Assembly: GCA_964537975.1 (NCBI GenBank)
Contig: CAZIDP010000003.1
Location: 74,182 to 138,181 of the forward strand
Length of the DNA stretch: 64,000 bases
Reading direction: 5' to 3'
Source of the DNA: an uncultured Nitrospirales bacterium
GTDB lineage: Bacteria > Hydrogenedentota > Hydrogenedentia > Hydrogenedentales > SCBR16-9
A model generated the notes under the pieces. The model did no database searches, was not told where the DNA came from, and saw only the letters and a program-made list of their open reading frames with translations. A program made the position numbers and the translations under genes. Shown here in pieces: positions 11,132 to 60,140 of this stretch (position 1 is its first letter; each line of letters begins with the position of its first letter).

Positions 11132-11551
11132 TTAAAAATACTTTTCTTTGCCTGCCGCTGACAAACGTGCTAAAGATCGTGAAATGGCCAGTTCTGCACG
11201 AGCGACGTTAATATCAGGCTCAATGTGCTGTAATCGTTCACGTGCACGTTCCAGTGCAGCTTGAGCACGTTTGATGTCTACATCATTTCCCGTTTCAAAT
11301 GCGTCGACCAGTACTATAACCTCGTCATCGCGCACCTCAACAAAACCTTTACTGATAGAAAAAAAATGTTCATTTCCGTCATTGTCCAAGGCCATCAATA
11401 CACCTGGAATCGTCGTACTTAAAAGTGCGGTGTGACCTGGCATGACAGTGAATACACCTGCAGTTCCTGGTATATGAACTTCTTGTGCAGTCATATGCAC
11501 GCGAGAGCTTTCTGGTGCACATATTTCCAGTTTGATGCGTCCTGATGCCAC
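11132..11551 (-). CDS. atpC: F1Fo ATP synthase epsilon subunit
   Basis: 139 aa with an AtpC-like beta-sandwich plus C-terminal helices. It is the last gene of the atp operon. Confidence 0.85.
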   Translation of the reverse strand: MASGRIKLEICAPESSRVHMTAQEVHIPGTAGVFTVMPGHTALLSTTIPGVLMALDNDGNEHFFSISKGFVEVRDDEVIVLVDAFETGNDVDIKRAQAALERARERLQHIEPDINVARAELAISRSLARLSAAGKEKYF

Positions 11552-11553
11552 AA

Positions 11554-13017
<1,464 letters not shown>

Positions 13018-13039: not shown

Positions 13040-13915
13040 TTACAACGCTTCCGCGCCACTGACAACTTCTATGAGTTGCGTGGTTATAGCATCTTGACGT
13101 ACCCGGTTGTATTGCAAAGTTAATCGCTCTATCATCTCACCTGCATTACGAGTAGCAGAATCCATTGCCGTCATTCGCGCACCAAACTCACTGGCAGCCG
13201 ATTCAAATAGTATGCGATGCATTTGTATTTCAAGATTTTTCAGAAGGAGTGCTTCAAACACACTCTCTTGATCGGGTTCATATATATAATCCAGTGGTAA
13301 AGTATTTCCACCATTAATATCATCTTCATTTTCAGAAATGAACGGCAGCAACCGCTCCAAAGTAGTTGTTTGCTGAACTGCTGATCTGAATTCATTATAC
13401 ATACAATACATTGACGAAAGATTCTCTTCAAGAAACTCCTTCACAACATTTTCGATTATCCATTGAGAAGTGCGGTAAACTGAACGGTCCAACTGACCGG
13501 GAAAAGTGGCGTGTATTGGATATCCACGACGTTTAAGAATGTCTATCCCTTTGCGTCCAACCACCACCAGCATTACATCATTATCTTTGAAACGTCCATC
13601 TAATAAACGTATTGCGTCATTAACGAGTGATGCGTTAAACCCCCCGCACAAACCACGATCAGATGTGATTAATACCAGTCCTATTTTGTTTTCTGGTCTT
13701 TGCTCCAAAAGGGGATGCATCGCACCTTGTGCCCGATTGGCAATTTCATTAACCAAATCCCGCATGTGGTAGGCATAGGGTCGTGCTTGAATTATAGATT
13801 CCTGTGCACGACGAAGCTTTGACGCAGCCACCATTTTCATGGCACGTGTAATTTTTTGGGTGCTCTGTACGCTTTTAATGCGTCGCTTTATGTCTCGCAA
13901 ATTCGCCATTGACAA
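13040..13915 (-). CDS. atpG: F1Fo ATP synthase gamma subunit
   Basis: 291 aa with a typical AtpG N-terminus (MANLRDIKRRIKSVQSTQKITRAMKMVAASKLRRAQ). Confidence 0.9.
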   Translation of the reverse strand: MSMANLRDIKRRIKSVQSTQKITRAMKMVAASKLRRAQESIIQARPYAYHMRDLVNEIANRAQGAMHPLLEQRPENKIGLVLITSDRGLCGGFNASLVNDAIRLLDGRFKDNDVMLVVVGRKGIDILKRRGYPIHATFPGQLDRSVYRTSQWIIENVVKEFLEENLSSMYCMYNEFRSAVQQTTTLERLLPFISENEDDINGGNTLPLDYIYEPDQESVFEALLLKNLEIQMHRILFESAASEFGARMTAMDSATRNAGEMIERLTLQYNRVRQDAITTQLIEVVSGAEAL

Positions 13916-13991: not shown

Positions 13992-15533
<1,542 letters not shown>

Positions 15534-15655: not shown

Positions 15656-16198
15656 TTAATTTGAACTCAACAATTCTTCGCGAAGATGTTGTAACCTGTT
15701 TTGTACACTTCCATCAATACGCATACTACCGATTTGTGCTACAACACCACCCAAAATTTCGGGATTTACTTCACAATACAGGTGAACACTACACCCGCAA
15801 TACTGTTCTAAAGAATCATTGAGTGATTGCTTTTGTTCTTCTGAAAGCGGAAGAGCTGTAGTAATTACGGCACGTGCCCGATGCTGAACATCATCGGCCA
15901 TTATGGAAAACACACGGGCAATATCAGATAAAATTCGGATACGTCCCTTGCGTATTAATAAATCAGCTAAATTGATCAGAATACTGGCAAACCCACCCTT
16001 AGATAATATCTCTCTAAGAATCTGGCTGCGAACTGAACTGCTGATTGCGTTGTTATATAGTATGTTGCTTACTTCTGGATGTTCAGCTACCATTTGTGCC
16101 ATATCCGTAAGGGACATATCTATATTGTCTAACTCGGTAACTTCAAGTGATCCAATCAGACCACCGGCATATCTTTCAGCCAGGAGAAAATTTTTCAT
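15656..16198 (-). CDS. atpH: F1Fo ATP synthase delta (OSCP) subunit
   Basis: 180 aa with an OSCP-like helical pattern. It overlaps atpF by 4 nt. Confidence 0.8.
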   Translation of the reverse strand: MKNFLLAERYAGGLIGSLEVTELDNIDMSLTDMAQMVAEHPEVSNILYNNAISSSVRSQILREILSKGGFASILINLADLLIRKGRIRILSDIARVFSIMADDVQHRARAVITTALPLSEEQKQSLNDSLEQYCGCSVHLYCEVNPEILGGVVAQIGSMRIDGSVQNRLQHLREELLSSN

Positions 16199-16971
16199 GG
16201 CTTAAACCGCCCCAGATCTACAATAAATCTTTGTAACAAAACTGCTTGATTCGCTTCATTTAAATTGTTGCGATATTTATTTTCCAATTGAGAAATTGCT
16301 TCATTAACGATATCACTTTTAACCTGCATGGCTGCAGTGTGATATTCATGTTGTTTCCGATCCGTAAACTCCAAGTCAAGCATCGTCAAACTTTGCTCAT
16401 TCATTTCCTGTAAGGCTTCTAATTCGCGATTCAATCGTTCTTCTGTTTCGGCCAGAACTTTGGCGCGTTCTTCATCAACATGGCCAAGTTTTTCCTTGGC
16501 TTCTAAAAGCCGCAATTCAGACTTGCGACGTTCCTCGGATGCTGACTCCATTCGTGTCTGAAGCCGTGCCAGACCCGAATCAAGGAATTGCAACAAGGGT
16601 TTACGGGCAAAACGCCATATGATAGCTATTAACAACAGCGAGTTGAAGACATTAAAAAAAACTTCATACAAATGCATACGACGCAATTCAGACTGATACT
16701 CGGGTTGCGCTGTATAAGTTTCTACAAAATCCAATTGTTGTGCAAAATCTTCTGGCACGTGCGGTTGGCCAGGCTCGTGAAGATGGGGGCGCTGCCTATA
16801 CAATTTGTATTCGTTACTCTTGATAATCTCAAGATATTCATCATGATGATCCCCAAAATTCTCCAGGTAATCTTTGGACAAGCCAGCAGGACCCATCAGG
16901 ATTGAACCACCAATCCAGACAATGAAGGAGATACTAGCCAAGGTAAGCATAAAGCGTTTGGCTGAACTCAT
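16195..16971 (-). CDS. atpF: F1Fo ATP synthase subunit b with ~95-aa N-terminal extension carrying an extra TM helix
   Basis: The b-like TM helix plus coiled coil starts near residue 96 (FFNVFNSLLLIAIIWRFARKPLL...). The extension contains a hydrophobic helix (FMLTLASISFIVWIGGSILMG). Confidence 0.7.
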   Translation of the reverse strand: MSSAKRFMLTLASISFIVWIGGSILMGPAGLSKDYLENFGDHHDEYLEIIKSNEYKLYRQRPHLHEPGQPHVPEDFAQQLDFVETYTAQPEYQSELRRMHLYEVFFNVFNSLLLIAIIWRFARKPLLQFLDSGLARLQTRMESASEERRKSELRLLEAKEKLGHVDEERAKVLAETEERLNRELEALQEMNEQSLTMLDLEFTDRKQHEYHTAAMQVKSDIVNEAISQLENKYRNNLNEANQAVLLQRFIVDLGRFKP

Positions 16972-17399
16972 ACTGAATTCCTTTCCAGCTCAATGCGCTC
17001 CGCCATTATATCAACCAGCTCAGCAGCAAGCTCGGGGTGGGATGCCCGCTCACTCGCGATCGTTTTTTTAACTTGAGCTCGTATTTCTGCCAATTCACGA
17101 TGATACTTGATTTTTACCTCATCAAGGCGCGCCATATGTGCTTCTTGCGCGGAACGATGTGCGCGTACCAGGGTGTGACTTGCTTCACGATGTATGGCAG
17201 CAATATCCGAAAAATACTGTCGCTCCAAATCTTCTGCTTGATTCGTCAAATGGATTGCCGACTTTTGATCATTGGCAATTTTGGATTCACGGCGGTCTGT
17301 CAGCTCCAATAAGGGCTTGAATATAAATACATTCATAGCCCATATAAAAATCAGGAACAGTGCCAGATTAATAAATAATGTCAGGTTGATGGTAACCAT
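16968..17399 (-). CDS. F1Fo ATP synthase subunit b' (second b-type subunit)
   Basis: 143 aa with an N-terminal TM helix (LTLFINLALFLIFIWAMNVFIFKPLL) followed by a long charged helix. Its stop overlaps the atpF start. Confidence 0.7.
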   Translation of the reverse strand: MVTINLTLFINLALFLIFIWAMNVFIFKPLLELTDRRESKIANDQKSAIHLTNQAEDLERQYFSDIAAIHREASHTLVRAHRSAQEAHMARLDEVKIKYHRELAEIRAQVKKTIASERASHPELAAELVDIMAERIELERNSV

Positions 17400-17572: not shown

Positions 17573-17902
17573 CTACGCCACAACAAAGAGAATCAGTAAG
17601 GCCATAACCAATGAATATATACCAGTAGATTCAGAAACAGCCTGACCAATAAGCATGGTTCGTGTCAATAATCCGGCTTCTTGTGGTGTGCGTCCGATTG
17701 CTTCACACGCTTTACCAGCAGCAAATCCCTGCCCAATGCCAGGTCCGATTGCGCCAAACCCCATACAAATACCTGCACCTATCAATGAGCCGGCAGTAAT
17801 AAGGTCTTGACCGGAAATACTGGCAGTTGCTGTGGTTGCTGTGGTTTCTGCTACTTGTGAAGTCATAGTATTCAATACTGTAAGAATAGTTGTCGGGTCC
17901 AT
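17573..17902 (-). CDS. atpE: F1Fo ATP synthase c subunit (canonical hairpin) with Na+-binding signature
   Basis: 109 aa. Helix 1 is [11 protein letters not shown] and helix 2 is [22 protein letters not shown]. This is the Q/E-S-T/Y constellation of Na+-translocating c subunits. A ~35-50 aa N-terminal extension precedes the hairpin. Confidence 0.9.
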
Positions 17903-18027: not shown

Positions 18028-19011
18028 TTAAATGACATACAATAATAATAAAGAGATAATGAGTGCGTAAATGGCTGTAGATTGTGATACCGCCTGCCCG
18101 ATAAGCATCGTACGCAATAATAATGTATCCTTGTCAGGCCGAGCAGCCGTGGCAGCACATCCGCTGGCTGCTGTCAGCCCACTACCTATCCCGGAACCTA
18201 CGCCGCCAAATCCAACTGCAATGGCTGCTCCAATCACTTTGGCAAACCCAATAAAACCTGGGGTAACATCCTGCATGGCAAACATCATAATGAAAGCAAT
18301 CAACATTCCGAAAATAGCAGGTGTTTCACAAACTGCCTGACCTATCAGCATGTTGCGCAATGTGACGCCATACGATTTCGGCCAGGCACTCATCCCATCT
18401 ACAGCTCCTCCAGCAGTACGCCCTGATCCGATTCCCGAACCCATTGCGCTAACCCCCATGGCGATGCCTGCACCTAGCACAATCCCGATAATATGGAATT
18501 CTGTAAAGGGATGTTGCCGCATGATAAGTATTAAAGAAACTACCAGGGCAAAAATACTTGGTGATTGGGCCACTGCCTGACCGATAATCATCGCTTGCGT
18601 TGTTTTGGAAATGCGATGCGGATTCCGAGCGACTCCATCACAGGCTGCACCTGCTGGCCAGCCACACCCCAGACCGCCACCTAAAGCACCAAAACCGATA
18701 GCAATACCTGCTCCGATTAAGGCCATGCAAAAATTTCCCCCTGCATCATCAATATTGACAGGGACAAACAATATAAATAAGCCGACTACCAGGGCAAATA
18801 TAGACGGGCTGCCGCCTACTGCTTGTCCAATAAGCATGGTTCGCAGCATTTGACCTTGCACCTTGGGTTGTCTCATGATCGCTTCGTTGGCATGTGCGGC
18901 TGCTTTGCCCATGCCATAGGCAGCACCAATACCGCCTAATCCCAAGGCGATACTTGCGCCAAAATAGCGTCCCAAAAGTATCCAAGTTTCCTGGTCAAGT
19001 TCCATGTTCAA
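18028..19011 (-). CDS. Tandem-quadruplicated (4-hairpin, 8-TM) ATP synthase c subunit; only repeat 3 retains the carboxylate
   Basis: 327 aa. There are four consecutive c-subunit repeats, each with a Gly-rich helix 1, an R-x-P loop and an LIGQAV helix 2. The helix-2 ion-site residue is G in repeat 1 (AVGGSPSIF), Q in repeat 2 (AVAQSPSIF), E in repeat 3 (AVCETPAIF) and Q in repeat 4 (AVSQSTAIY). Confidence 0.8.
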   Translation of the reverse strand: MNMELDQETWILLGRYFGASIALGLGGIGAAYGMGKAAAHANEAIMRQPKVQGQMLRTMLIGQAVGGSPSIFALVVGLFILFVPVNIDDAGGNFCMALIGAGIAIGFGALGGGLGCGWPAGAACDGVARNPHRISKTTQAMIIGQAVAQSPSIFALVVSLILIMRQHPFTEFHIIGIVLGAGIAMGVSAMGSGIGSGRTAGGAVDGMSAWPKSYGVTLRNMLIGQAVCETPAIFGMLIAFIMMFAMQDVTPGFIGFAKVIGAAIAVGFGGVGSGIGSGLTAASGCAATAARPDKDTLLLRTMLIGQAVSQSTAIYALIISLLLLYVI

Positions 19012-19156: not shown

Positions 19157-19915
19157 TTATTTTATGGCTACAGCAATATAGGTTAATGTAAGCATTGTAA
19201 ATACAAAAGCTTGCACCGTACCTACAAAGAAGATAAAGAAAACATCCATACCAACTGACAGCCAACTAAAGTAAAAAGTAAGGTTTGATACCACAATTAT
19301 AATAATGGCACCACCGATGATATTACCGAAAAGACGAAATGATATAGACACCACCTTGGCAAGTTCACCAACAATATTTAAAGGTAGAAAAAACAACGCT
19401 GATAACTTGCCTGCAACTTTGCCAAGTCCTTTGGTGTCTTTACTGGAAAACATTGGCCCCATTAGTTCTTCTACAAACCCGCCAAAACCCTTGGCACGAA
19501 TACCGCAGTACGTCGCTATACTCATGGCCAGAATGCCCAGCCCCAATGTCGCGTTAATATCAGCTGTCGGTTCTTCTACAAAGTGAGATGGGAAAAAACC
19601 GATAAAGTTGCATAGCAACAAATAAATGAAAAGTGTTCCAATCAATGGGAAAAATCGGCGATTTTCTTTTAAAGTGTCAAATTCAAGTGAATTGGACACC
19701 AATTGATCAAATACACCAACATACGATTCGAGGATGTATTGAGCACGTCCGGGCATCATCTCGAAGCGGCGCACAGAATAAAAACATACGGAAAATAATA
19801 TCACCATAACCAGTATGGAGTTGAAAATGGTTATAGGATTGATTCCACCCATCGGAATTAATATATCCGTAAATGGAATGTAGTACCAGATTAAGCGTTC
19901 ACCAATACTGTCCAT
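19157..19915 (-). CDS. atpB: F1Fo ATP synthase a subunit
   Basis: 252 aa polytopic membrane protein. The conserved stator arginine motif SISFRLFGNIIGG is present. Confidence 0.9.
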   Translation of the reverse strand: MDSIGERLIWYYIPFTDILIPMGGINPITIFNSILVMVILFSVCFYSVRRFEMMPGRAQYILESYVGVFDQLVSNSLEFDTLKENRRFFPLIGTLFIYLLLCNFIGFFPSHFVEEPTADINATLGLGILAMSIATYCGIRAKGFGGFVEELMGPMFSSKDTKGLGKVAGKLSALFFLPLNIVGELAKVVSISFRLFGNIIGGAIIIIVVSNLTFYFSWLSVGMDVFFIFFVGTVQAFVFTMLTLTYIAVAIK

Positions 19916-19922
19916 ATAGTTG

Positions 19923-20312
19923 TTATACTTTACTCTTTTCTAAATCCAAACCTGTGAGTGCTACAAAAATCATGACAATCCGAATTATAAACAGACCAGC
20001 AACTGCTGCAAAAAGTCCATATAAGGATTCTTGATCCAACCTGTATGCGCGGTACAAAACTAGTGCGTAGATCAGGAGGCGGACGAAAGTCCATTGGAAT
20101 GCCCAAGACTGTACTTTGTCCGGGGGCAAACTTGCAAGTTTTTCCGCTCGTACAGCAAGAATCCAAAAGGCTAAAGTACCACCAACCCCCCCAAAAGCAA
20201 ATCCCATAGCAAGCACACGACCCCAGAAAATCCACAGCAGTAATGTCGATACAATGGTTATGCCGATTGAAATAGATACACACAAGATGCGTAAGCGCTT
20301 TAGTGATTCCAA
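19923..20312 (-). CDS. atpI: ATP synthase protein I (AtpI-like, 4 TM)
   Basis: 129 aa hydrophobic protein immediately upstream of atpB. The overlapping 117-aa ORF in another frame (19930..20283) is judged a shadow ORF. Confidence 0.55.
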   Translation of the reverse strand: MESLKRLRILCVSISIGITIVSTLLLWIFWGRVLAMGFAFGGVGGTLAFWILAVRAEKLASLPPDKVQSWAFQWTFVRLLIYALVLYRAYRLDQESLYGLFAAVAGLFIIRIVMIFVALTGLDLEKSKV

Positions 20313-20545
20313 GGCAGGTCTTTCATTATGAGTTTATAAGCGCTATAAAAGCCGACCATAATACCAATTATTATGGAACTTGCAATTATCAGGCCATGCC
20401 CATTCAAGCGAGTATCAAGCCACACCCCAACCACAACGGCTACTGTTAATGGGAGCACCACCACCAAGCCCAAAGTGCCTACCAAGCCCAATGCACGTAT
20501 GTAACTCATACTACCTTTGTGCTGTAGATTATTTGTCATAAACAC
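20300..20545 (-). CDS. AtpZ/AtpI-family small membrane protein (putative F0F1-ATPase-associated subunit)
   Basis: 81 aa with 2 TM helices. It is the first gene of the atp operon and overlaps atpI by 13 nt. Confidence 0.5.
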   Translation of the reverse strand: MFMTNNLQHKGSMSYIRALGLVGTLGLVVVLPLTVAVVVGVWLDTRLNGHGLIIASSIIIGIMVGFYSAYKLIMKDLPWNH

Positions 20546-22352: not shown

Positions 22353-24710
22353 ATGATTAATCTCGCTGAAAATATATCACGATCTCAGAAAGTTTTTTGT
22401 GCATTATTGTGGATCGTTTTGGCTGTTTCATGCTCCGAACGGACTGTGTTTGCAGCAGATCATTCGTTTCTATTATTGGAGCAGACAACCAATCTTGTCG
22501 GTGCTGCGGAACGTCTTTACATGTTGGAAATGCGATCTGGTGAAATAGCATCAAATCCTATGCCATTGCATGGTACAGAACCAATTGGTGATATCATACT
22601 TACAGAAAGTGGGAGGTATGGTGTCATTACAACCGGTTTGCCCTGGTTCGGTGAAGCTCCTTCTTTGCAACATACCTGGACATACACAACAGCTTTTGAA
22701 ACTAAACCTTTACGCGCCATTAAACAACCTCCATTTTTGGGTGAGACCGGTATACGCACTGTAATTTCCGAGATTCATGAACGGCAAAATGTCTTCCCCC
22801 CGGAATGGATTTTCATGACGCAGGGAACTGATGACAGGGGACAGGGAAAGGGGGAGTTAGGGCTGCTTTCTAATTTTAATGGTGGTTTTGAAACACATCA
22901 TGATATTCCAGGGCAACCCCTTCAGTTGCTATTGCTTCCTGAATCCAATAGCATTCCGGAACAAGTGGCTGTGTTATATCGGCATACAGATACACGCGCG
23001 CCGATGCTGCGTATCTTGTCACCAGAAACAGGCTTGATTTATATTGAACACGCCATACAAGATAAATTAGAAATAAACGGTAAGACCGAGATAGCGCAAA
23101 TAAGCATCTCATCTGATGGCCTTCATATTTGGGTTGCTGTTTCCGGTTTTGATCTTACCCGTACCGGGGAGTTCGCAGTTACATGGGTTGCCGCGTATGA
23201 ATATCTCGCTGATCAATGGACAACCCCAGTCCAGATTACAGGTATGGCATTTGGCAACACACCTGTACTCTATCCATCAGGAACAACTGCAAGCTGGATC
23301 ACAACGCGGTTACCTGGCGCTCAGTTTGGCTATGTTGTTTTACTTGAATTATCGCACAACACAGGTCAAGTAAAAGCATTACATAAAGTTGAACAATATG
23401 CGCTCACCAATATTGATGCACCAATTTTATTGTCAGTGAACACCAGATCGAAGGATGTTGCAGTCGCCTGGGGGAACCGACTGGAAATATGGCCAGACGG
23501 TAAGCGAGGAGCATTGGAAAGTAACCATTTCCAGACAGATGTTGATTTTATACAATTGCTGCGTTCCGAAAACGAATTATTCGCGCTAACCCAACAAACG
23601 TTATATCACTTGGATTCTAATACAAATCGTCTATCTGAAGTATATGTTTCAAACAATAGAAATTTGGTGAGGGCAATACCCCTTCCAAAAGGCAATGGAG
23701 AGGTATATTGGGACATTGAAGACAACGACAGATCAGTGCAATTAAATACTCCTGCTACCTTACATTTTCGCGGTGAAGCGGCTGGTCGCGAACTGCAAGA
23801 AATCCATATTCATCCGGTAGGACCAGGTGCCGCTGAAGCAATTTGGCGCATTCATTATGATCAGGAAGCCATGCCCTGGTTGCGCTTACATCCACGTTCA
23901 GGACGGGGGTCAGGATTTGTCTACACAGGTATTGACCCCGGTTTGTATGAACCAGAGAAACCGCTTCAAGGGCTCCTGGAGGTGACACTTGAGGCTCCGG
24001 ACGATACACTTTTTATAACAAATTCACCATCCTATATTGTTATACAAGTGTCACCACCGGCATCTTCTGTTTTGCGTGTACTTTGGGTATGGCCTGAAGA
24101 ATCCAATGTTGGATTTCGTTCAACCAAGGACCCTTGGTCAATGAAAAAACTGGGTGATATGCTCGCGGCAGCACCACATTACATGTCACATCGTGAAGTA
24201 TTTGGATCCTTCCAGGATAGCCTGTCTCCATATGCCATAGTGGTCATCGGTATACGTGCAGCTTTGGCAGGGGGATTAACGCGCCAAGCACTTCTGGAAT
24301 ATGTACAGGCAGGAGGTGCTTTGTTTTTAATAGGTGAATATTTAGAAGATACTGTGGACCCGGCCTTACAACGTTGGCTTGGTGGTGTTGGAATACAAAT
24401 TCATGCAGAATCCTCTGTTGAAGATAAAATAGGTACCATTGATGTAGCCCAGGAAATTGTGCTTCCCTGGTCTGAACAATTAACTGTGCAGGGGTGTCTT
24501 ATACAAGCCAGTGCACCCGTGATACAATTTTCTGCAATGTCCGATTCCAACATTTCGTTATTTTCTGCTGCTGAATATGGCTTGGGGCGTGTTGCTGTAT
24601 TGGCAGGTCCCACACCACTCGAAAGCAGTGTTGTGCAAAATGAAGCTAACCGTCGATTTGCTGAATCCCTGTTTCGTTGGTTGTCACGTGCCGGAATGGA
24701 TGGCGAGTAA
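22353..24710 (+). CDS. Large secreted hypothetical protein, C-terminal domain possibly class-I glutamine-amidotransferase-like (ThuA/DUF4159-type)
   Basis: 785 aa with a signal peptide (LLWIVLAVSCSERTVFA). The C-terminal segment (YAIVVIGIRAALAGGLTRQALLEYVQAGGALFLIGEY) resembles a GATase1-like fold. No recognizable catalytic motif is seen. Confidence 0.45.
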   Translation: MINLAENISRSQKVFCALLWIVLAVSCSERTVFAADHSFLLLEQTTNLVGAAERLYMLEMRSGEIASNPMPLHGTEPIGDIILTESGRYGVITTGLPWFGEAPSLQHTWTYTTAFETKPLRAIKQPPFLGETGIRTVISEIHERQNVFPPEWIFMTQGTDDRGQGKGELGLLSNFNGGFETHHDIPGQPLQLLLLPESNSIPEQVAVLYRHTDTRAPMLRILSPETGLIYIEHAIQDKLEINGKTEIAQISISSDGLHIWVAVSGFDLTRTGEFAVTWVAAYEYLADQWTTPVQITGMAFGNTPVLYPSGTTASWITTRLPGAQFGYVVLLELSHNTGQVKALHKVEQYALTNIDAPILLSVNTRSKDVAVAWGNRLEIWPDGKRGALESNHFQTDVDFIQLLRSENELFALTQQTLYHLDSNTNRLSEVYVSNNRNLVRAIPLPKGNGEVYWDIEDNDRSVQLNTPATLHFRGEAAGRELQEIHIHPVGPGAAEAIWRIHYDQEAMPWLRLHPRSGRGSGFVYTGIDPGLYEPEKPLQGLLEVTLEAPDDTLFITNSPSYIVIQVSPPASSVLRVLWVWPEESNVGFRSTKDPWSMKKLGDMLAAAPHYMSHREVFGSFQDSLSPYAIVVIGIRAALAGGLTRQALLEYVQAGGALFLIGEYLEDTVDPALQRWLGGVGIQIHAESSVEDKIGTIDVAQEIVLPWSEQLTVQGCLIQASAPVIQFSAMSDSNISLFSAAEYGLGRVAVLAGPTPLESSVVQNEANRRFAESLFRWLSRAGMDGE

Positions 24711-26492: not shown

Positions 26493-28082
26493 TCAACGTG
26501 CGGCAAAAAGTGTTTCATATATTTGGCGATTACGGGAATTAGGACTTCCCATCAACTCTACCGGACCTGGCCAGGCACGCATGGACTCAACTATCTCGGT
26601 AGACAATCCATTCAGGCTGTCTGCCTGGAGTCTGACCGGGCCAGGTGTAACAGCATAAGTCGACATATGTTTAATGATTCGTCCTACATTGTTCCAGTCC
26701 AGAATCTCCGGGTTGATGACCAATGAAGCCGTGGGCAAAATTGACTTATCTGCAGCAAATGAGCGTGCGTGAGTAAATGCCAAGTGGTCTGCTTGTGAAC
26801 GGGTCATGTTAAATTTTACCAACAGAGAATCTGGAATATGTGAAGCTTCAATCACTATAAAATCGAATCCCCAGCCAAGAATGGTCTTTATTCGAGATTC
26901 ATACAAAGCCAGTGCATTTTGATCGCTTAAATTCAACCAAGCCTGTCCATCATCAGATAGCATAACCCCCGAGGATTCACTACTTTTTATTGTAAGTGGG
27001 TCGATTATAATGCCGGGCGAAACCTTTGCGTCCCGTAATGATTTGGCGGCTTGTGCCATATTTCGAGGGAACAAAGGTGTTGCGCCTTCTAAAGAGCCTG
27101 GAATGCCTTCCCAATTACCTGGTATAAGTGCATGGCGTATTCCATAGGGCCGCCAGGCTTCAGTCTGCCGTAACAAGGTATCCAAACCTTCATTATCTTG
27201 TACAGCGATCCATACCGGAGGCGCTTTTGCAAGAATACTGTTAGTACCTAGCGTACTGAAAAACCAGGAATAGTTTAAATCAACATTATCACGGTCCGGG
27301 TCTCCAAATGATAGCCATATGGCATCGGAAACCAGACTTTCACCTGGCTTCAACGGGTAATTCGGCTCATATACACAACTGATTTCTCCCATCCAGGTTC
27401 CGCCATGAGGTTGGAAATCAATTCCAGATCGCGCTTCTCCCCGAGGTAAGATTCCCATGGCAAGTAATATTTCTCGATCCGGTTCATGAAACAGCGTCAA
27501 CATAGATTGTTGGCCCTGATCGAAAATTGGCGAACCACCTCGAACATGAACATTTTGGTGATGAATCTTAGCTGTGGTATCACGTAAGTGAACTGCACCA
27601 GGTTGGAAAACAACCGGGTTCAGCTTTTGTATAGGAATAATATCTTGCGAGACATTATCCACCCGTAAGGTAATCATTTGAAAGCCACGATCCTTAAAAC
27701 TTGTGATACTATGGTTGATTTGGAGACCGTCCAGTGGTGGAAATACGACATTAAAATTGGTTCCAGGACTACGTTCATGGTCAAAATTAACTCTGTGTGC
27801 GTCTGCCCTTTCGAGGTGGTCTGCTCTTATGATCGTACCACTGCCCAACGTTACCGAAAATCCTACTTCTTCAACTACCGGGGTGCCAGTTTTGTCATTA
27901 AGAGTCCAGGCAGCATCCTCTTCACAATACAATATCGAACCGGTCGCAGTTCGAAAGGTATAATGATTGCGTAAAGTCCAAGGAAGTTTTTCTGGAAGTG
28001 GTTGGGCTACTAATGTGTGGTTAGGAAACAACAGAAAAACAACAAGAATCAAGATAACTCCTGTTATAATTCTGTGCTTCAT
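26493..28082 (-). CDS. Secreted hypothetical protein (possible TIM-barrel glycosidase-like)
   Basis: The internal Met (MKHRIITGVILILVVFLLF..AQ) gives a clean signal peptide, so the start was trimmed by arithmetic from the track ORF 26493..28166. The function is not recognisable by eye. Confidence 0.45.
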   Translation of the reverse strand: MKHRIITGVILILVVFLLFPNHTLVAQPLPEKLPWTLRNHYTFRTATGSILYCEEDAAWTLNDKTGTPVVEEVGFSVTLGSGTIIRADHLERADAHRVNFDHERSPGTNFNVVFPPLDGLQINHSITSFKDRGFQMITLRVDNVSQDIIPIQKLNPVVFQPGAVHLRDTTAKIHHQNVHVRGGSPIFDQGQQSMLTLFHEPDREILLAMGILPRGEARSGIDFQPHGGTWMGEISCVYEPNYPLKPGESLVSDAIWLSFGDPDRDNVDLNYSWFFSTLGTNSILAKAPPVWIAVQDNEGLDTLLRQTEAWRPYGIRHALIPGNWEGIPGSLEGATPLFPRNMAQAAKSLRDAKVSPGIIIDPLTIKSSESSGVMLSDDGQAWLNLSDQNALALYESRIKTILGWGFDFIVIEASHIPDSLLVKFNMTRSQADHLAFTHARSFAADKSILPTASLVINPEILDWNNVGRIIKHMSTYAVTPGPVRLQADSLNGLSTEIVESMRAWPGPVELMGSPNSRNRQIYETLFAAR

Positions 28083-28409
28083 CAATGCACATGGATTTAT
28101 CAAGTCACGTGAATTACTTTCCTGGAATTTGAAAAATTGCAAGATATTCAACGGAAAAGTCAGCATTTTTGATCTCCGAACTTAATAATTTGGGGTACTT
28201 GGTTAACAGAGGTTATAATTAAATGGAATTTTTTGATTCTTTAATCAGCGCAACATTAATGCCGATTATACACGAAATCTGGTAATTCAATAAAGAATAA
28301 CGCTAGATATCGTAGTACTTACCAAAATTTTACTTTAGTCTTCCATTTACATATTTTCAGATACAGGTACTTGGCAATAAGTTAATGATTTATCATAGAC
28401 AGGAGCAAT

Positions 28410-58328: not shown

Positions 58329-60140
58329 ATGACTGAAGAAGGTTCGGTAGGACTGGTTGAAGCGCAATTTTATACCTTCGCGCATCCCCCCCATGCACTT
58401 CAACTGGAAAGTGGTTCCAATCTAGGGCCTATTACATTGGCATATGAGACCTATGGTGAACTGAATGAAGCTAAAGATAATGCCATTTTAATCACCCATG
58501 CTTTGTCTGGTGATGCCCATGTTGCCGGTAGGCATACAGCAAATGACAGAAAACCGGGCTGGTGGGATTCCATGATAGGCCCCGGAAAAGCTTTTGATAC
58601 CAACAAGTACTTTGTCTTTTGTTCGAATGTCATTGGTGGATGCCAGGGCTCAACTGGCCCTTCCTCTATAAATCCAGTATCAGGAAAACCGTATGGACTT
58701 GACTTTCCCATCATAACAATCCATGACATGGTCAAAGCACAAACAACGCTTATGGAGCATTTGGGAATCACGCAACTGTTATGTGTTGCCGGAGGTTCAA
58801 TGGGAGGTATGCAGGCGCTGGAATGGGCAGTGCATTATCCTGATTTGGTGAAATCCGTGATGATTATCGCTTCCACCCATCTGAGCGGTGCCCAGCAGAT
58901 AGCTTTTGATGCTGTAGGTCGAAATGCCATACAGGCTGATACAAATTTTAATAACGGGCAATACTATAATGGTGAAATGCCTGTGCGAGGTTTGGCCATT
59001 GCCCGTATGCTGGCACATATTACGTACTTGTCTGATCAATCGATGCGAACCAAATTTGGCCGCACATTACGTGAAAACGCTGCTTTTCATTATGATTTTG
59101 ACAGCGAGTTTTCTGTAGAAACCTATCTGGATTATCAGGGGCAACAATTTGTAAACAGGTTTGATGCCAACACGTATTTATATGTAACGAAAGCAATAGA
59201 CTATTTTGATATATCTTCAGGCTATGCGTCACTGGACGGTGCTTTATCTAACGTTAAGTGCAAATCATTTGTGCTTGCCTTTTCTTCTGACTGGTTATAT
59301 CCCCCCTATTTTTCCGAAGAAATTGCATACAGTCTTGCACGCCAAAAAAAAGAAGTCAGTTACTGCAACGTAGAGTCTGATTATGGTCATGATGCCTTTT
59401 TACTGGAAGTTGATGTAATGAAGAAACTCATTTCCGGATATCTTGCCCATACCAAAAACCCGGATTTGGTACACACGCAGTTTCTTGAGGAAGACTCTGA
59501 AGCAGATGATGGTCCACCACGAGCCTCGGAAGAAAATATTTATCGTGGTCACCGTGTGGACTATGAGATGATTGTGGACTTGGTACCAAAATCAAGCCGA
59601 GTGCTTGATATTGGATGTGGCGATGGGGAGTTATTATGTCGGTTGATTGCTAAAAAAAATGTTCAAGCGCTAGGACTGGAGCTCTCCCAAGGTAACATCG
59701 TAAGTTGCGTCAGGCGTGGTATTCAAGTGATTCAGGCTGATATAGATGAAGGTTTAAGTGCTTTGCCGGATTATAGCTTTGACGTAGTAATTTTAAGCAT
59801 GACACTGCAGGTTATCAGCAAGCCAGAATTGGTACTCAAGGAAATGTTGCGTGTCGGCAAAAAGTGTATTATCAGTTTTCCGAACTTCGGGCACTGGAAA
59901 GTCCGTGTTAATACATTCTTTAAGGGGCAAGCGCCTGTTACCAGGAATCTACCTTATGCCTGGTATCAATCACCCAACAGGCATGTATTATCCATCAAAG
60001 ACTTTCGGAAGTTTTGTGAACAATTATCCATTAAAATAGAAAAAGAAATACCGTTATACAGTCAAGGCGAAGCAAAAACACTTGTTAACTTGTTTGCCGA
60101 AGAAGCGGTATATGTAGTGAGCGCTGAGAACAACAAATAA
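58329..60140 (+). CDS. metX: Homoserine O-acetyltransferase fused to MetW-like methyltransferase-fold domain (MetX-MetW fusion)
   Basis: N-terminal ~380 aa is MetX with the nucleophile elbow GGSMGGMQAL. C-terminal ~200 aa is MetW-like with a SAM-MTase-fold G-rich motif (VLDIGCGDGELL). Confidence 0.8.
   Translation: MTEEGSVGLVEAQFYTFAHPPHALQLESGSNLGPITLAYETYGELNEAKDNAILITHALSGDAHVAGRHTANDRKPGWWDSMIGPGKAFDTNKYFVFCSNVIGGCQGSTGPSSINPVSGKPYGLDFPIITIHDMVKAQTTLMEHLGITQLLCVAGGSMGGMQALEWAVHYPDLVKSVMIIASTHLSGAQQIAFDAVGRNAIQADTNFNNGQYYNGEMPVRGLAIARMLAHITYLSDQSMRTKFGRTLRENAAFHYDFDSEFSVETYLDYQGQQFVNRFDANTYLYVTKAIDYFDISSGYASLDGALSNVKCKSFVLAFSSDWLYPPYFSEEIAYSLARQKKEVSYCNVESDYGHDAFLLEVDVMKKLISGYLAHTKNPDLVHTQFLEEDSEADDGPPRASEENIYRGHRVDYEMIVDLVPKSSRVLDIGCGDGELLCRLIAKKNVQALGLELSQGNIVSCVRRGIQVIQADIDEGLSALPDYSFDVVILSMTLQVISKPELVLKEMLRVGKKCIISFPNFGHWKVRVNTFFKGQAPVTRNLPYAWYQSPNRHVLSIKDFRKFCEQLSIKIEKEIPLYSQGEAKTLVNLFAEEAVYVVSAENNK

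Follow-up and report, generated by a model that had tools for sequence, protein, structure and literature searches.

In this study we describe a gene for four fused c-subunit hairpins (c4) within an F1Fo ATP synthase operon of an uncultured Nitrospirales bacterium, which its GTDB lineage places in the Hydrogenedentota. The gene lies on the minus strand (18028..19005) of the window, a stretch of 64,000 nucleotides (assembly GCA_964537975.1, contig CAZIDP010000003.1, positions 74,182 to 138,181 of the forward strand), and is followed by a gene for a normal single-hairpin c subunit. For c4, the data show directly how the gene is built, its fold, its place in the operon, its conservation and the chemistry of its sites. 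On balance we consider it probable that c4 belongs to the rotor, as part of a hybrid Na+ c-ring, and is as such an extended, independently evolved analogue of the c1 subunit of Acetobacterium woodii. An earlier note, made from the letters of the window alone, had treated c4 as a singular oddity; instead we found that multi-hairpin c subunits are a large conserved family with 3 to 6 hairpins, present in at least three phyla and in cultured strains.

The open reading frame (ORF) is intact at 18028..19011, as the earlier note had placed it while leaving the minus strand unsaid, and comprises 327 amino acids when counted from an in-frame TTG at 19011. The start is likely the ATG at 19005, two codons past the TTG; the resulting product of 325 residues is 100% identical to a database protein (P0001), and the stop codon occupies 18030-18028. 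Four consecutive stretches of c4 were matched by PF00137 (ATP-synt_C; E 7e-55, 183.5 bits against a cut-off of 24), which bears out the claim of four c-subunit hairpins in one ORF. The hairpins are thus recognised by the F-type c families (PF00137, TIGR01260), whereas the helix-2 carboxylate is not present in every one of them (G, Q, E, Q). The single-hairpin F-type c models of NCBIfam gave four matches each on c4, with scores above those of the V-type K models, and we found no NCBIfam model for a multi-hairpin protein like c4. Identity among the hairpins is 34-41%, and with the product of the neighbouring atpE they share 38-49%. At the DNA level only a 26-nt segment coding for RTMLIGQAV recurs within the gene (77-88% identity). 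Since this is the sole repeat and the hairpins are diverged, a collapsed or expanded tandem repeat or an assembly artefact could be ruled out, as the earlier note had argued.

An AlphaFold2 model of c4, built on an alignment of 95 orthologs, was predicted with high confidence (predicted local distance difference test, pLDDT, 96; predicted template modelling score, pTM, 0.92) and consists of eight long helices, that is four hairpins, in agreement with the proteolipid of eight transmembrane (TM) segments proposed before. The helices are broken at the four cytoplasmic loops and at a Pro after the ion-site position, the latter in hairpins 1-3 only. No solved chain in a structure search spans more than two of the four hairpins. 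The best structural match (Foldseek) is A. woodii c1 (4bem_J; root-mean-square deviation 1.5 Å over 153 columns, 40% identity), and the second best is E. hirae NtpK. By sequence c4 matches 4bem_J with E 2.5e-21, hairpins 3-4 lying on c1 hairpin 1 (E) and hairpin 2 (Q).

For the ion sites every hairpin was aligned to I. tartaricus c and read at positions 32/63/65/66/67/70. Hairpin 1 (aa 1-84; 18754..19005, minus strand, like all that follow) shows M32 V63 G65 S66 P67 F70 and a loop R-Q-P, and hairpin 2 (aa 85-165; 18511..18753) shows C V Q S P F and a loop R-N-P; neither has a carboxylate. The sole carboxylate is E227 (codon GAA at 18327-18325) of hairpin 3 (aa 166-245; 18271..18510), which reads S V E T P F with a loop x-W-P. 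Hairpin 4 (aa 246-325; 18031..18270) reads S V Q S T Y; it has no carboxylate and keeps S66/T67/Y70. The residues equivalent to E65 are hence G65, Q147, E227 and Q308, against E in the monomer, and the helix-2 series G/Q/E/Q with its single carboxylate is the one given earlier. The equivalents of residue 32 are M, C, S and S: the C, S and S of the earlier reading are right, and the K assigned to hairpin 1 is an M, with the K two residues later. The adjacent atpE product, in contrast, has the full Na+ motif Q32 V63 E65 S66 T67 Y70 and an N-terminal extension of ~30 aa; its signature Q V E S T Y equals that of I. tartaricus c. The combination expected of a Na+-coupled c (Q/E32, V63, E65, S/T66, T67, Y70) is thus found in the atpE product and in no single hairpin of c4.

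Conservation of these residues was counted in the 95 aligned orthologs, in which 48 columns are invariant. In hairpin 1, M32 is present in 95/95 and position 65 is G in 75, S in 17 and E in 3. Hairpin 2 has C114 in 95/95 and Q147 in 94/95, and hairpin 4 has Q308 in 94, S309 in 94, T310 in 91 and Y313 in 91. In hairpin 3 the residues W208, T228 and P229 are invariant, and position 227 is Q in 54, E in 39 and D in 2. Read from hairpin 1 to hairpin 4, the most frequent pattern is GQQQ (46/95), followed by GQEQ (26/95), SQEQ (9/95), SQQQ (8/95), GQDQ (2/95), EQEQ (2/95), GQEE (1/95) and EDEQ (1/95). A carboxylate is therefore lacking altogether in 54 orthologs; 37 have one, three have two and one has three. 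In a neighbour-joining tree the window's clade mostly keeps the hairpin-3 E, and a large clade lacks it; the tree further suggests several scattered losses. Judged from these alignments E227 is dispensable in evolution. Its surroundings are degenerate as well, with S at its own position 32 and S-P-F in the donor hairpin 2, so that 3/6 canonical Na+ positions are lost. Owing to both the dispensability and the incomplete pocket, E227 is unlikely to be a fully competent Na+ site, and a weak or proton-type site is possible. The notion of one functional site per four hairpins has hence become doubtful.

All four hairpins are under purifying selection: pN/pS was 0.05-0.09 against the closest relative and 0.13-0.35 against others, in a comparison whose synonymous sites are near saturation. 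Loop 1 is kept almost without change (R45 94, Q46 95, P47 94 of 95), as is loop 2 (R127 95, N128 95, P129 94), and loop 4 is weaker (R 55, P 93). The Gly-rich helix-1 packing motifs are retained in all four hairpins.

A word-indexed protein search with c4 yielded 1841 matches. Among the best 120 of these we counted 114 four-hairpin proteins of 315-335 aa with 61-77% identity, the named ones all from Hydrogenedentes or Hydrogenedentota, and the rest were five- and six-hairpin relatives (404-487 aa, ~42% identity). A HMMER search of 1.84 billion cluster representatives gave 1240 matches, of which 64 lie below 1e-30. Their lengths are concentrated around 160, 240, 320 and 406-435 aa, and outliers reach 1139 aa. 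In a genome scan restricted to one genome per species we found 308 loci and kept 80 (L001-L080). L001-L033 are mostly Hydrogenedentota metagenome-assembled genomes (MAGs) with a c4 of 58-89% identity, some of them labelled 'Nitrospirales' or 'uncultured bacterium', and L034-L080 are mostly Desulfobacterales with c4 or c5 (41-45% identity). One locus with c3 comes from Cloacimonadota, c6 relatives come from metagenomes, and the cultured carriers include Desulfosarcina widdelii PP31, with a complete genome, and Desulfatitalea alkaliphila M08but. In 80/80 kept loci the gene order is subunit a, multi-hairpin c, single-hairpin c. The Hydrogenedentota loci show the whole F1Fo operon wherever the contig reaches far enough, and a six-hairpin gene (P0053) lies inside a full atpZ to atpC operon. 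In D. widdelii (L034, NZ_AP021875.1 4243011-4260316) the order is atpI-a-c4-c-b'-b, followed by unrelated genes. In both L034 and L037 (D. alkaliphila) the cluster is confined to Fo genes, atpI-a-cN-c-b'-b, and F1 genes are absent within 8 kb. By record names, many carriers come from soda-lake, hypersaline and marine sediments, which fits Na+ coupling.

Some observations concern the history of these genes. When Hydrogenedentota and Desulfobacterales proteins are compared hairpin by hairpin, identity is 46% for h1-h1, 49-50% for h2-h2/h3, 47% for h3-h3 and 47% for h4-h4, and 37-44% for the other pairs. This positional correspondence points to an old fusion shared by both groups, and the five-hairpin forms arose by internal duplication of hairpin 2. 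The Desulfobacterales multi-hairpin c has its single Glu in hairpin 1, with E32 as in the two-carboxylate motif of F. nucleatum. In the cultured sulfate reducers, unlike in the window, it is accordingly the first hairpin that carries Glu, in c4 (E-Q-Q-Q) as in c5 (E, then carboxylate-free hairpins). Most monomeric c subunits of L001-L080 have E32 and E65 (EVESTY), the two-carboxylate Na+ motif of Fusobacterium nucleatum; Q32 was seen in the window and in four other Hydrogenedentota loci. Monomeric c subunits from three phyla are 72-75% identical, a similarity that hints at lateral spread of the whole operon type. Eight loci (L009, L010, L012, L017-L019, L025, L026) belong to MAGs named 'uncultured Nitrospirales/Nitrospiraceae' that have a Hydrogenedentota-type operon with a c4 of 58-70% identity; these labels may be wrong, or the contigs mis-binned. 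The protein matches also contained other classes of multi-hairpin c (P0125, P0128, P0169, P0186, P0197, P0200). P0125 has five hairpins with Glu in each, and P0128 has four (328 aa, 43% identical to c4) with the pattern E-E-E-Q. Further four-hairpin proteins, of ~320 aa, share just 26-32% identity with c4 and show E-Q-E-E/D. Giant proteolipids of about 7-14 fused A-type hairpins were found too (P0127/P0271 with 1139-1147 aa, P0179, P0187), P0127/P0271 being annotated as 'hypothetical protein' in Asgard archaea (Promethearchaeota, Hodarchaeota).

How could hairpins without a carboxylate take part in a Na+ ring? The Na+ site lies between adjacent c subunits, one of which provides residue 32 and E65 and the neighbour V63 O and S66; Y70 and S66 hydrogen-bond E65, and T67 holds a water ligand (PMC3692424). 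We compared the two conceivable registers in 80 multi-hairpin proteins together with the monomers that flank them. With the preceding hairpin as donor, an intact S/T66-S/T67-Y70 triad precedes a carboxylate-bearing hairpin in 79/79 cases and degenerate triads precede dead hairpins in 232/250, counts that describe a pattern among related sequences rather than independent trials. In the opposite register there was no association, and a dead site would fall to 63/79 intact donors. The donor rule has 18 exceptions, which appear to be mostly h2-to-h3 pairs of the window type, with E227 and the donor S-P-F. The pattern indicates that S66/T67/Y70 come to each site from the hairpin before it. The last hairpin, itself dead, keeps S-T-Y in every lineage, like hairpin 2 of A. 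woodii c1, and the preceding-hairpin register would explain why: it would complete the Na+ site of the monomeric c that follows.

The A. woodii enzyme is the closest known system. Its c-ring consists of 9 c2/3 and 1 c1 with one Na+ site each (PMC9171764), and c1 also occurs in C. aceticum (PMC7911925). Both c1 and c4 are multi-hairpin c subunits encoded in an F-type atp operon beside a single-hairpin c with the Na+ motif. In both, Glu has been replaced by Gln in one hairpin and the last hairpin keeps T/S-T-Y, and c1 (4BEM, an F/V-hybrid Na+ ring) is the best match of c4 in sequence and fold. However, c1 has two hairpins (4 TM, 18 kDa) and 1/2 carboxylates, whereas c4 has four hairpins and 0-1 carboxylates. 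In c4, moreover, dead hairpins are adjacent, and residue 32 is M, C, S and S where c1 keeps Q. The hairpins of c1 are 70-72% identical to their own c2 and only 34-45% to Hydrogenedentota c4 hairpins, which speaks against common descent of c4 and c1. The two fusions therefore arose independently, and by these identities that of c1 is separate and younger. Thus c1 holds as a precedent and as the closest solved relative, and close kinship does not.

Among V/A-type proteolipids, E. hirae NtpK and the eukaryotic c (2 hairpins, 1 site) share with c4 the fusion of hairpins and the loss of some sites, and NtpK and the Vo c match its fold over two hairpins. In contrast to these, the operon of c4 is F-type (a of PF00119, b/b', delta/OSCP, epsilon), and live and dead hairpins alternate in the known V/A forms where c4 has a run of dead ones. 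For archaeal c, the available text of PMC9171764 lists 1, 2, 3 or 13 hairpins and no four-hairpin form; it also discusses the reduced ion/ATP ratio of fused c. The monomeric c of the window shares Q32-V63-E65-S66-T67-Y70 with the I. tartaricus c11 ring, and the monomers of most relatives carry E32/E65 as in the F. nucleatum c11 ring; both of these Na+ rings are homomeric, unlike the ring we propose.

In this proposal c4 would co-assemble with monomeric atpE products into a heteromeric ring and fill four adjacent positions. Ring membership is suggested because the closest homologue, A. woodii c1, is a proven ring member, because the Gly-rich motifs are kept together with the stalk-contacting R-x-P loops of hairpins 1 and 2 (weaker in 4), and because a single-hairpin c adjoins in every one of the kept loci. 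As more than half of the orthologs are carboxylate-free, c4 would be no ion carrier alone and would have to work with the monomer, and the retained terminal S-T-Y implies a live neighbouring hairpin. Each Na+ site would be formed by residue 32 and E65 of one hairpin and by V63, S66, T67 and Y70 of the preceding one. The sites of hairpins 1, 2 and 4 would be dead (M/G, C/Q, S/Q), the S-T-Y of hairpin 4 would be kept only for the monomeric c that follows, whose site it would complete, and the Glu of hairpin 3, in its stripped pocket, would be at best a weak or proton-type site. In such a ring every monomer would account for one full Na+ site, next to an ion-blind sector spanning up to four hairpins, and the Na+ required per ATP would fall below that of any characterised F-type enzyme. 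For illustration, a ring of one c4 and 7 c, with its 11 hairpins assumed after I. tartaricus or A. woodii, would carry 7-8 ions per turn or 2.3-2.7 Na+/ATP, compared with 10 ions per turn and about 3.3 Na+/ATP for the A. woodii ring. A run of four dead hairpins would span ~130 degrees of this 11-ring by a rough estimate, more than one 120-degree F1 step. The sector would be easily passed under ATP hydrolysis and only with great difficulty when ion flow drives rotation against the phosphorylation potential, which is why we lean towards a Na+ extrusion pump driven by ATP and capable of maintaining a steep gradient, or towards a synthase restricted to high sodium-motive force. The lower ion/ATP ratio and the pumping against a steep gradient, both already proposed from the letters, are plausible. 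If E227 works, the dead runs of the window's c4 would be only 2 and 1 hairpins long and the case less extreme.

Several alternatives have to be weighed against a hybrid ring. One is that E227 is a fully working coupling site, giving one ion (Na+ or H+) per four hairpins. A lone Glu can bind H+ in proton-type c-rings, and E or D stands at this position in 41/95 orthologs and in most of the window's clade. On the other hand Q has replaced it in the remaining 54, the tree suggests that this happened several times, residue 32 is S and the donor offers P67 and F70, so that half of the six Na+ positions are gone, and the donor rule fails mostly at h2-to-h3 pairs; we thus regard a fully working E227 as rather unlikely. 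It is improbable, in our view, that c4 stays outside the working ring as an assembly template or 'ruler' or as a regulatory or stator-associated proteolipid. Such a role would agree with the constant co-encoding of c4 with the assembly factors atpI/atpZ, with hairpin-specific invariant residues (M32, C114, W208, T228-P229) that suggest specialised contacts and with a hairpin number that varies from 3 to 6 across lineages. But the closest solved homologue is a true ring member, the stalk-contacting loops and Gly packing motifs are conserved, and the terminal S-T-Y implies that a neighbour's ion site is completed within a ring. Still less likely is a rotor made of c4 alone, for example 3 copies with 12 hairpins and 3 sites, which would shift the gear to about 1 ion/ATP under some conditions. 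The window's c4 does have one Glu per polypeptide, and archaeal enzymes with rings of multi-hairpin c alone are described in PMC9171764. However, a ring of the carboxylate-free orthologs would translocate nothing, the monomer gene follows directly downstream in all 80 loci, and the S-T-Y of a dead last hairpin makes sense only beside the live hairpin of another subunit. There is a negligible chance that c4 is a pseudogene, a tandem duplication in decay or an artefact of assembly, as nothing except the loss of carboxylates speaks for it. Against it, the reading frame is unbroken in the window as well as in >100 orthologs that were assembled independently, purifying selection acts on every hairpin, long DNA repeats are lacking and the model is confident.

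The hybrid ring, which we favour, also has points against it. While the gene and its conservation are given, we infer the incorporation of c4 into the ring, the copies per ring, the site geometry and the working direction. The site register was derived from conservation among related sequences and not from coordinates, and the argument from kinetics that favours a pump over a synthase is a back-of-envelope one. A further point comes from an engineered single-chain c10 of Bacillus PS3, which resembles c4 in being a fused multi-hairpin c that works in an F-type enzyme: one E56Q hairpin in it abolished ATP synthesis (PMC8809890). That ring is artificial, and natural c4-c6 proteins carry 3-5 such hairpins; by this analogy a natural run of 2-5 dead hairpins would be mechanistically uncomfortable. 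The PS3 result illustrates how easily synthesis can be lost, although the natural A. woodii ring tolerates one carboxylate-free hairpin (PMC9171764).

The operon around c4 lies on the minus strand, is complete and has the standard F-type order atpZ-I-B-c4-E-F'-F-H-A-G-D-C; Pfam matches and translations agree with the earlier placement of c4 between atpB and a normal Na+-motif atpE. It begins with atpZ ('ATPase_gene1', 20300-20545, PF09527 E 1.8e-8), atpI (19923-20312, PF03899 E 2.7e-11) and atpB for subunit a (19157-19915, PF00119 E 2.8e-42), which has its conserved Arg in ...ISFRLFGNI.... Downstream of c4 follow atpE for the single-hairpin c of 109 aa (17573-17902, PF00137 E 1.6e-18) and the genes, assigned by Pfam matches, for b' (16968-17399, 143 aa), b (16195-16971, PF00430, 258 aa) and delta (15656-16198). 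Those for alpha (13992-15530), gamma (13040-13915), beta (11554-13011) and epsilon (11132-11551) were assigned from their translations, and with the window's alpha, gamma and beta as phmmer queries the same gene order was recovered in related loci. The identity as an N-ATPase was rejected, since the order is standard and delta is present, whereas N-ATPases have atpDCQRBEFAG without delta; the N-ATPase c model TIGR03322 scored 129.4, below its cut-off of 130.85, even when summed over the four hairpins. A V/A-type enzyme was rejected as well, the neighbours being all of F-type families and the F-type c models beating the V-type K models. Shine-Dalgarno values were -3.1 kcal/mol for c4 versus -6.4 kcal/mol for atpE, and automatic picking of start codons in orthologs proved unreliable.

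The N-terminal extension of the atpE product (~30 aa) is Thr/Ala-rich. Stop-to-stop ORFs of monomeric c are mostly 109-152 aa long in Hydrogenedentota versus mostly 82-100 aa in Desulfobacterales, and the extension may be lineage-wide in Hydrogenedentota. Subunit b is unusual too: its PF00430 match begins only near residue ~105 of 258, and its N-terminal ~100 aa include one additional hydrophobic segment as well as an acidic, His-/Pro-rich stretch, which gives it a two-TM-like appearance beside a normal b'. The remaining genes of the window are ordinary chromosomal ones, for example pheST, alr, lptD and ispH. One 603-aa ORF (58329-60140, plus strand) joins an alpha/beta-hydrolase (MetX-like) domain to MetW. 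Two ORFs flanking the region (22353-24710, plus strand, 785 aa; 26493-28166, minus strand, 557 aa) gave no Pfam match at E <= 1e-4.

The ion/ATP ratio, the basic gear of bioenergetics, is set by how many ion sites the c-ring has. To our knowledge, the only natural exception to one site per hairpin that has been studied in F-type enzymes is the two-hairpin c1 of A. woodii, also present in C. aceticum, in which one site is removed. In the searchable literature we found no description of a c subunit with at least three hairpins in an F-type operon, although an earlier mention is possible; in a 2026 paper, Brandt & Muller 2015 is cited only for 'multiple atpE copies' in Rnf-dependent anaerobes. 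With the conserved c4 gene three or four neighbouring sites are lost, and as many as five in six-hairpin relatives, in many uncultured and a few cultured lineages from saline, alkaline and anoxic habitats. If c4 is part of the ring, rotation would have to cross a long sector without ion exchange, which would test models of torque generation; F-type enzymes could then reach low stoichiometries like those of V-type enzymes, and multi-hairpin c subunits would have evolved repeatedly. The cultured carriers D. widdelii PP31 and D. alkaliphila M08but make the role of c4 directly testable. As a tentative and still doubtful extension, there might be a widespread, undescribed class of bacterial Na+ F1Fo enzymes whose ring contains one 3- to 6-hairpin subunit as a contiguous ion-blind sector. 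If so, that sector would run to as many as five carboxylate-free hairpins in a row and might take up a third of the ring or more, in contradiction to engineered rings, which lead one to expect that one dead hairpin kills function. Such enzymes would have the lowest ion/ATP ratio of any F-type enzyme and might be one-directional machines, the bacterial F-type counterpart of the V-ATPase pump.

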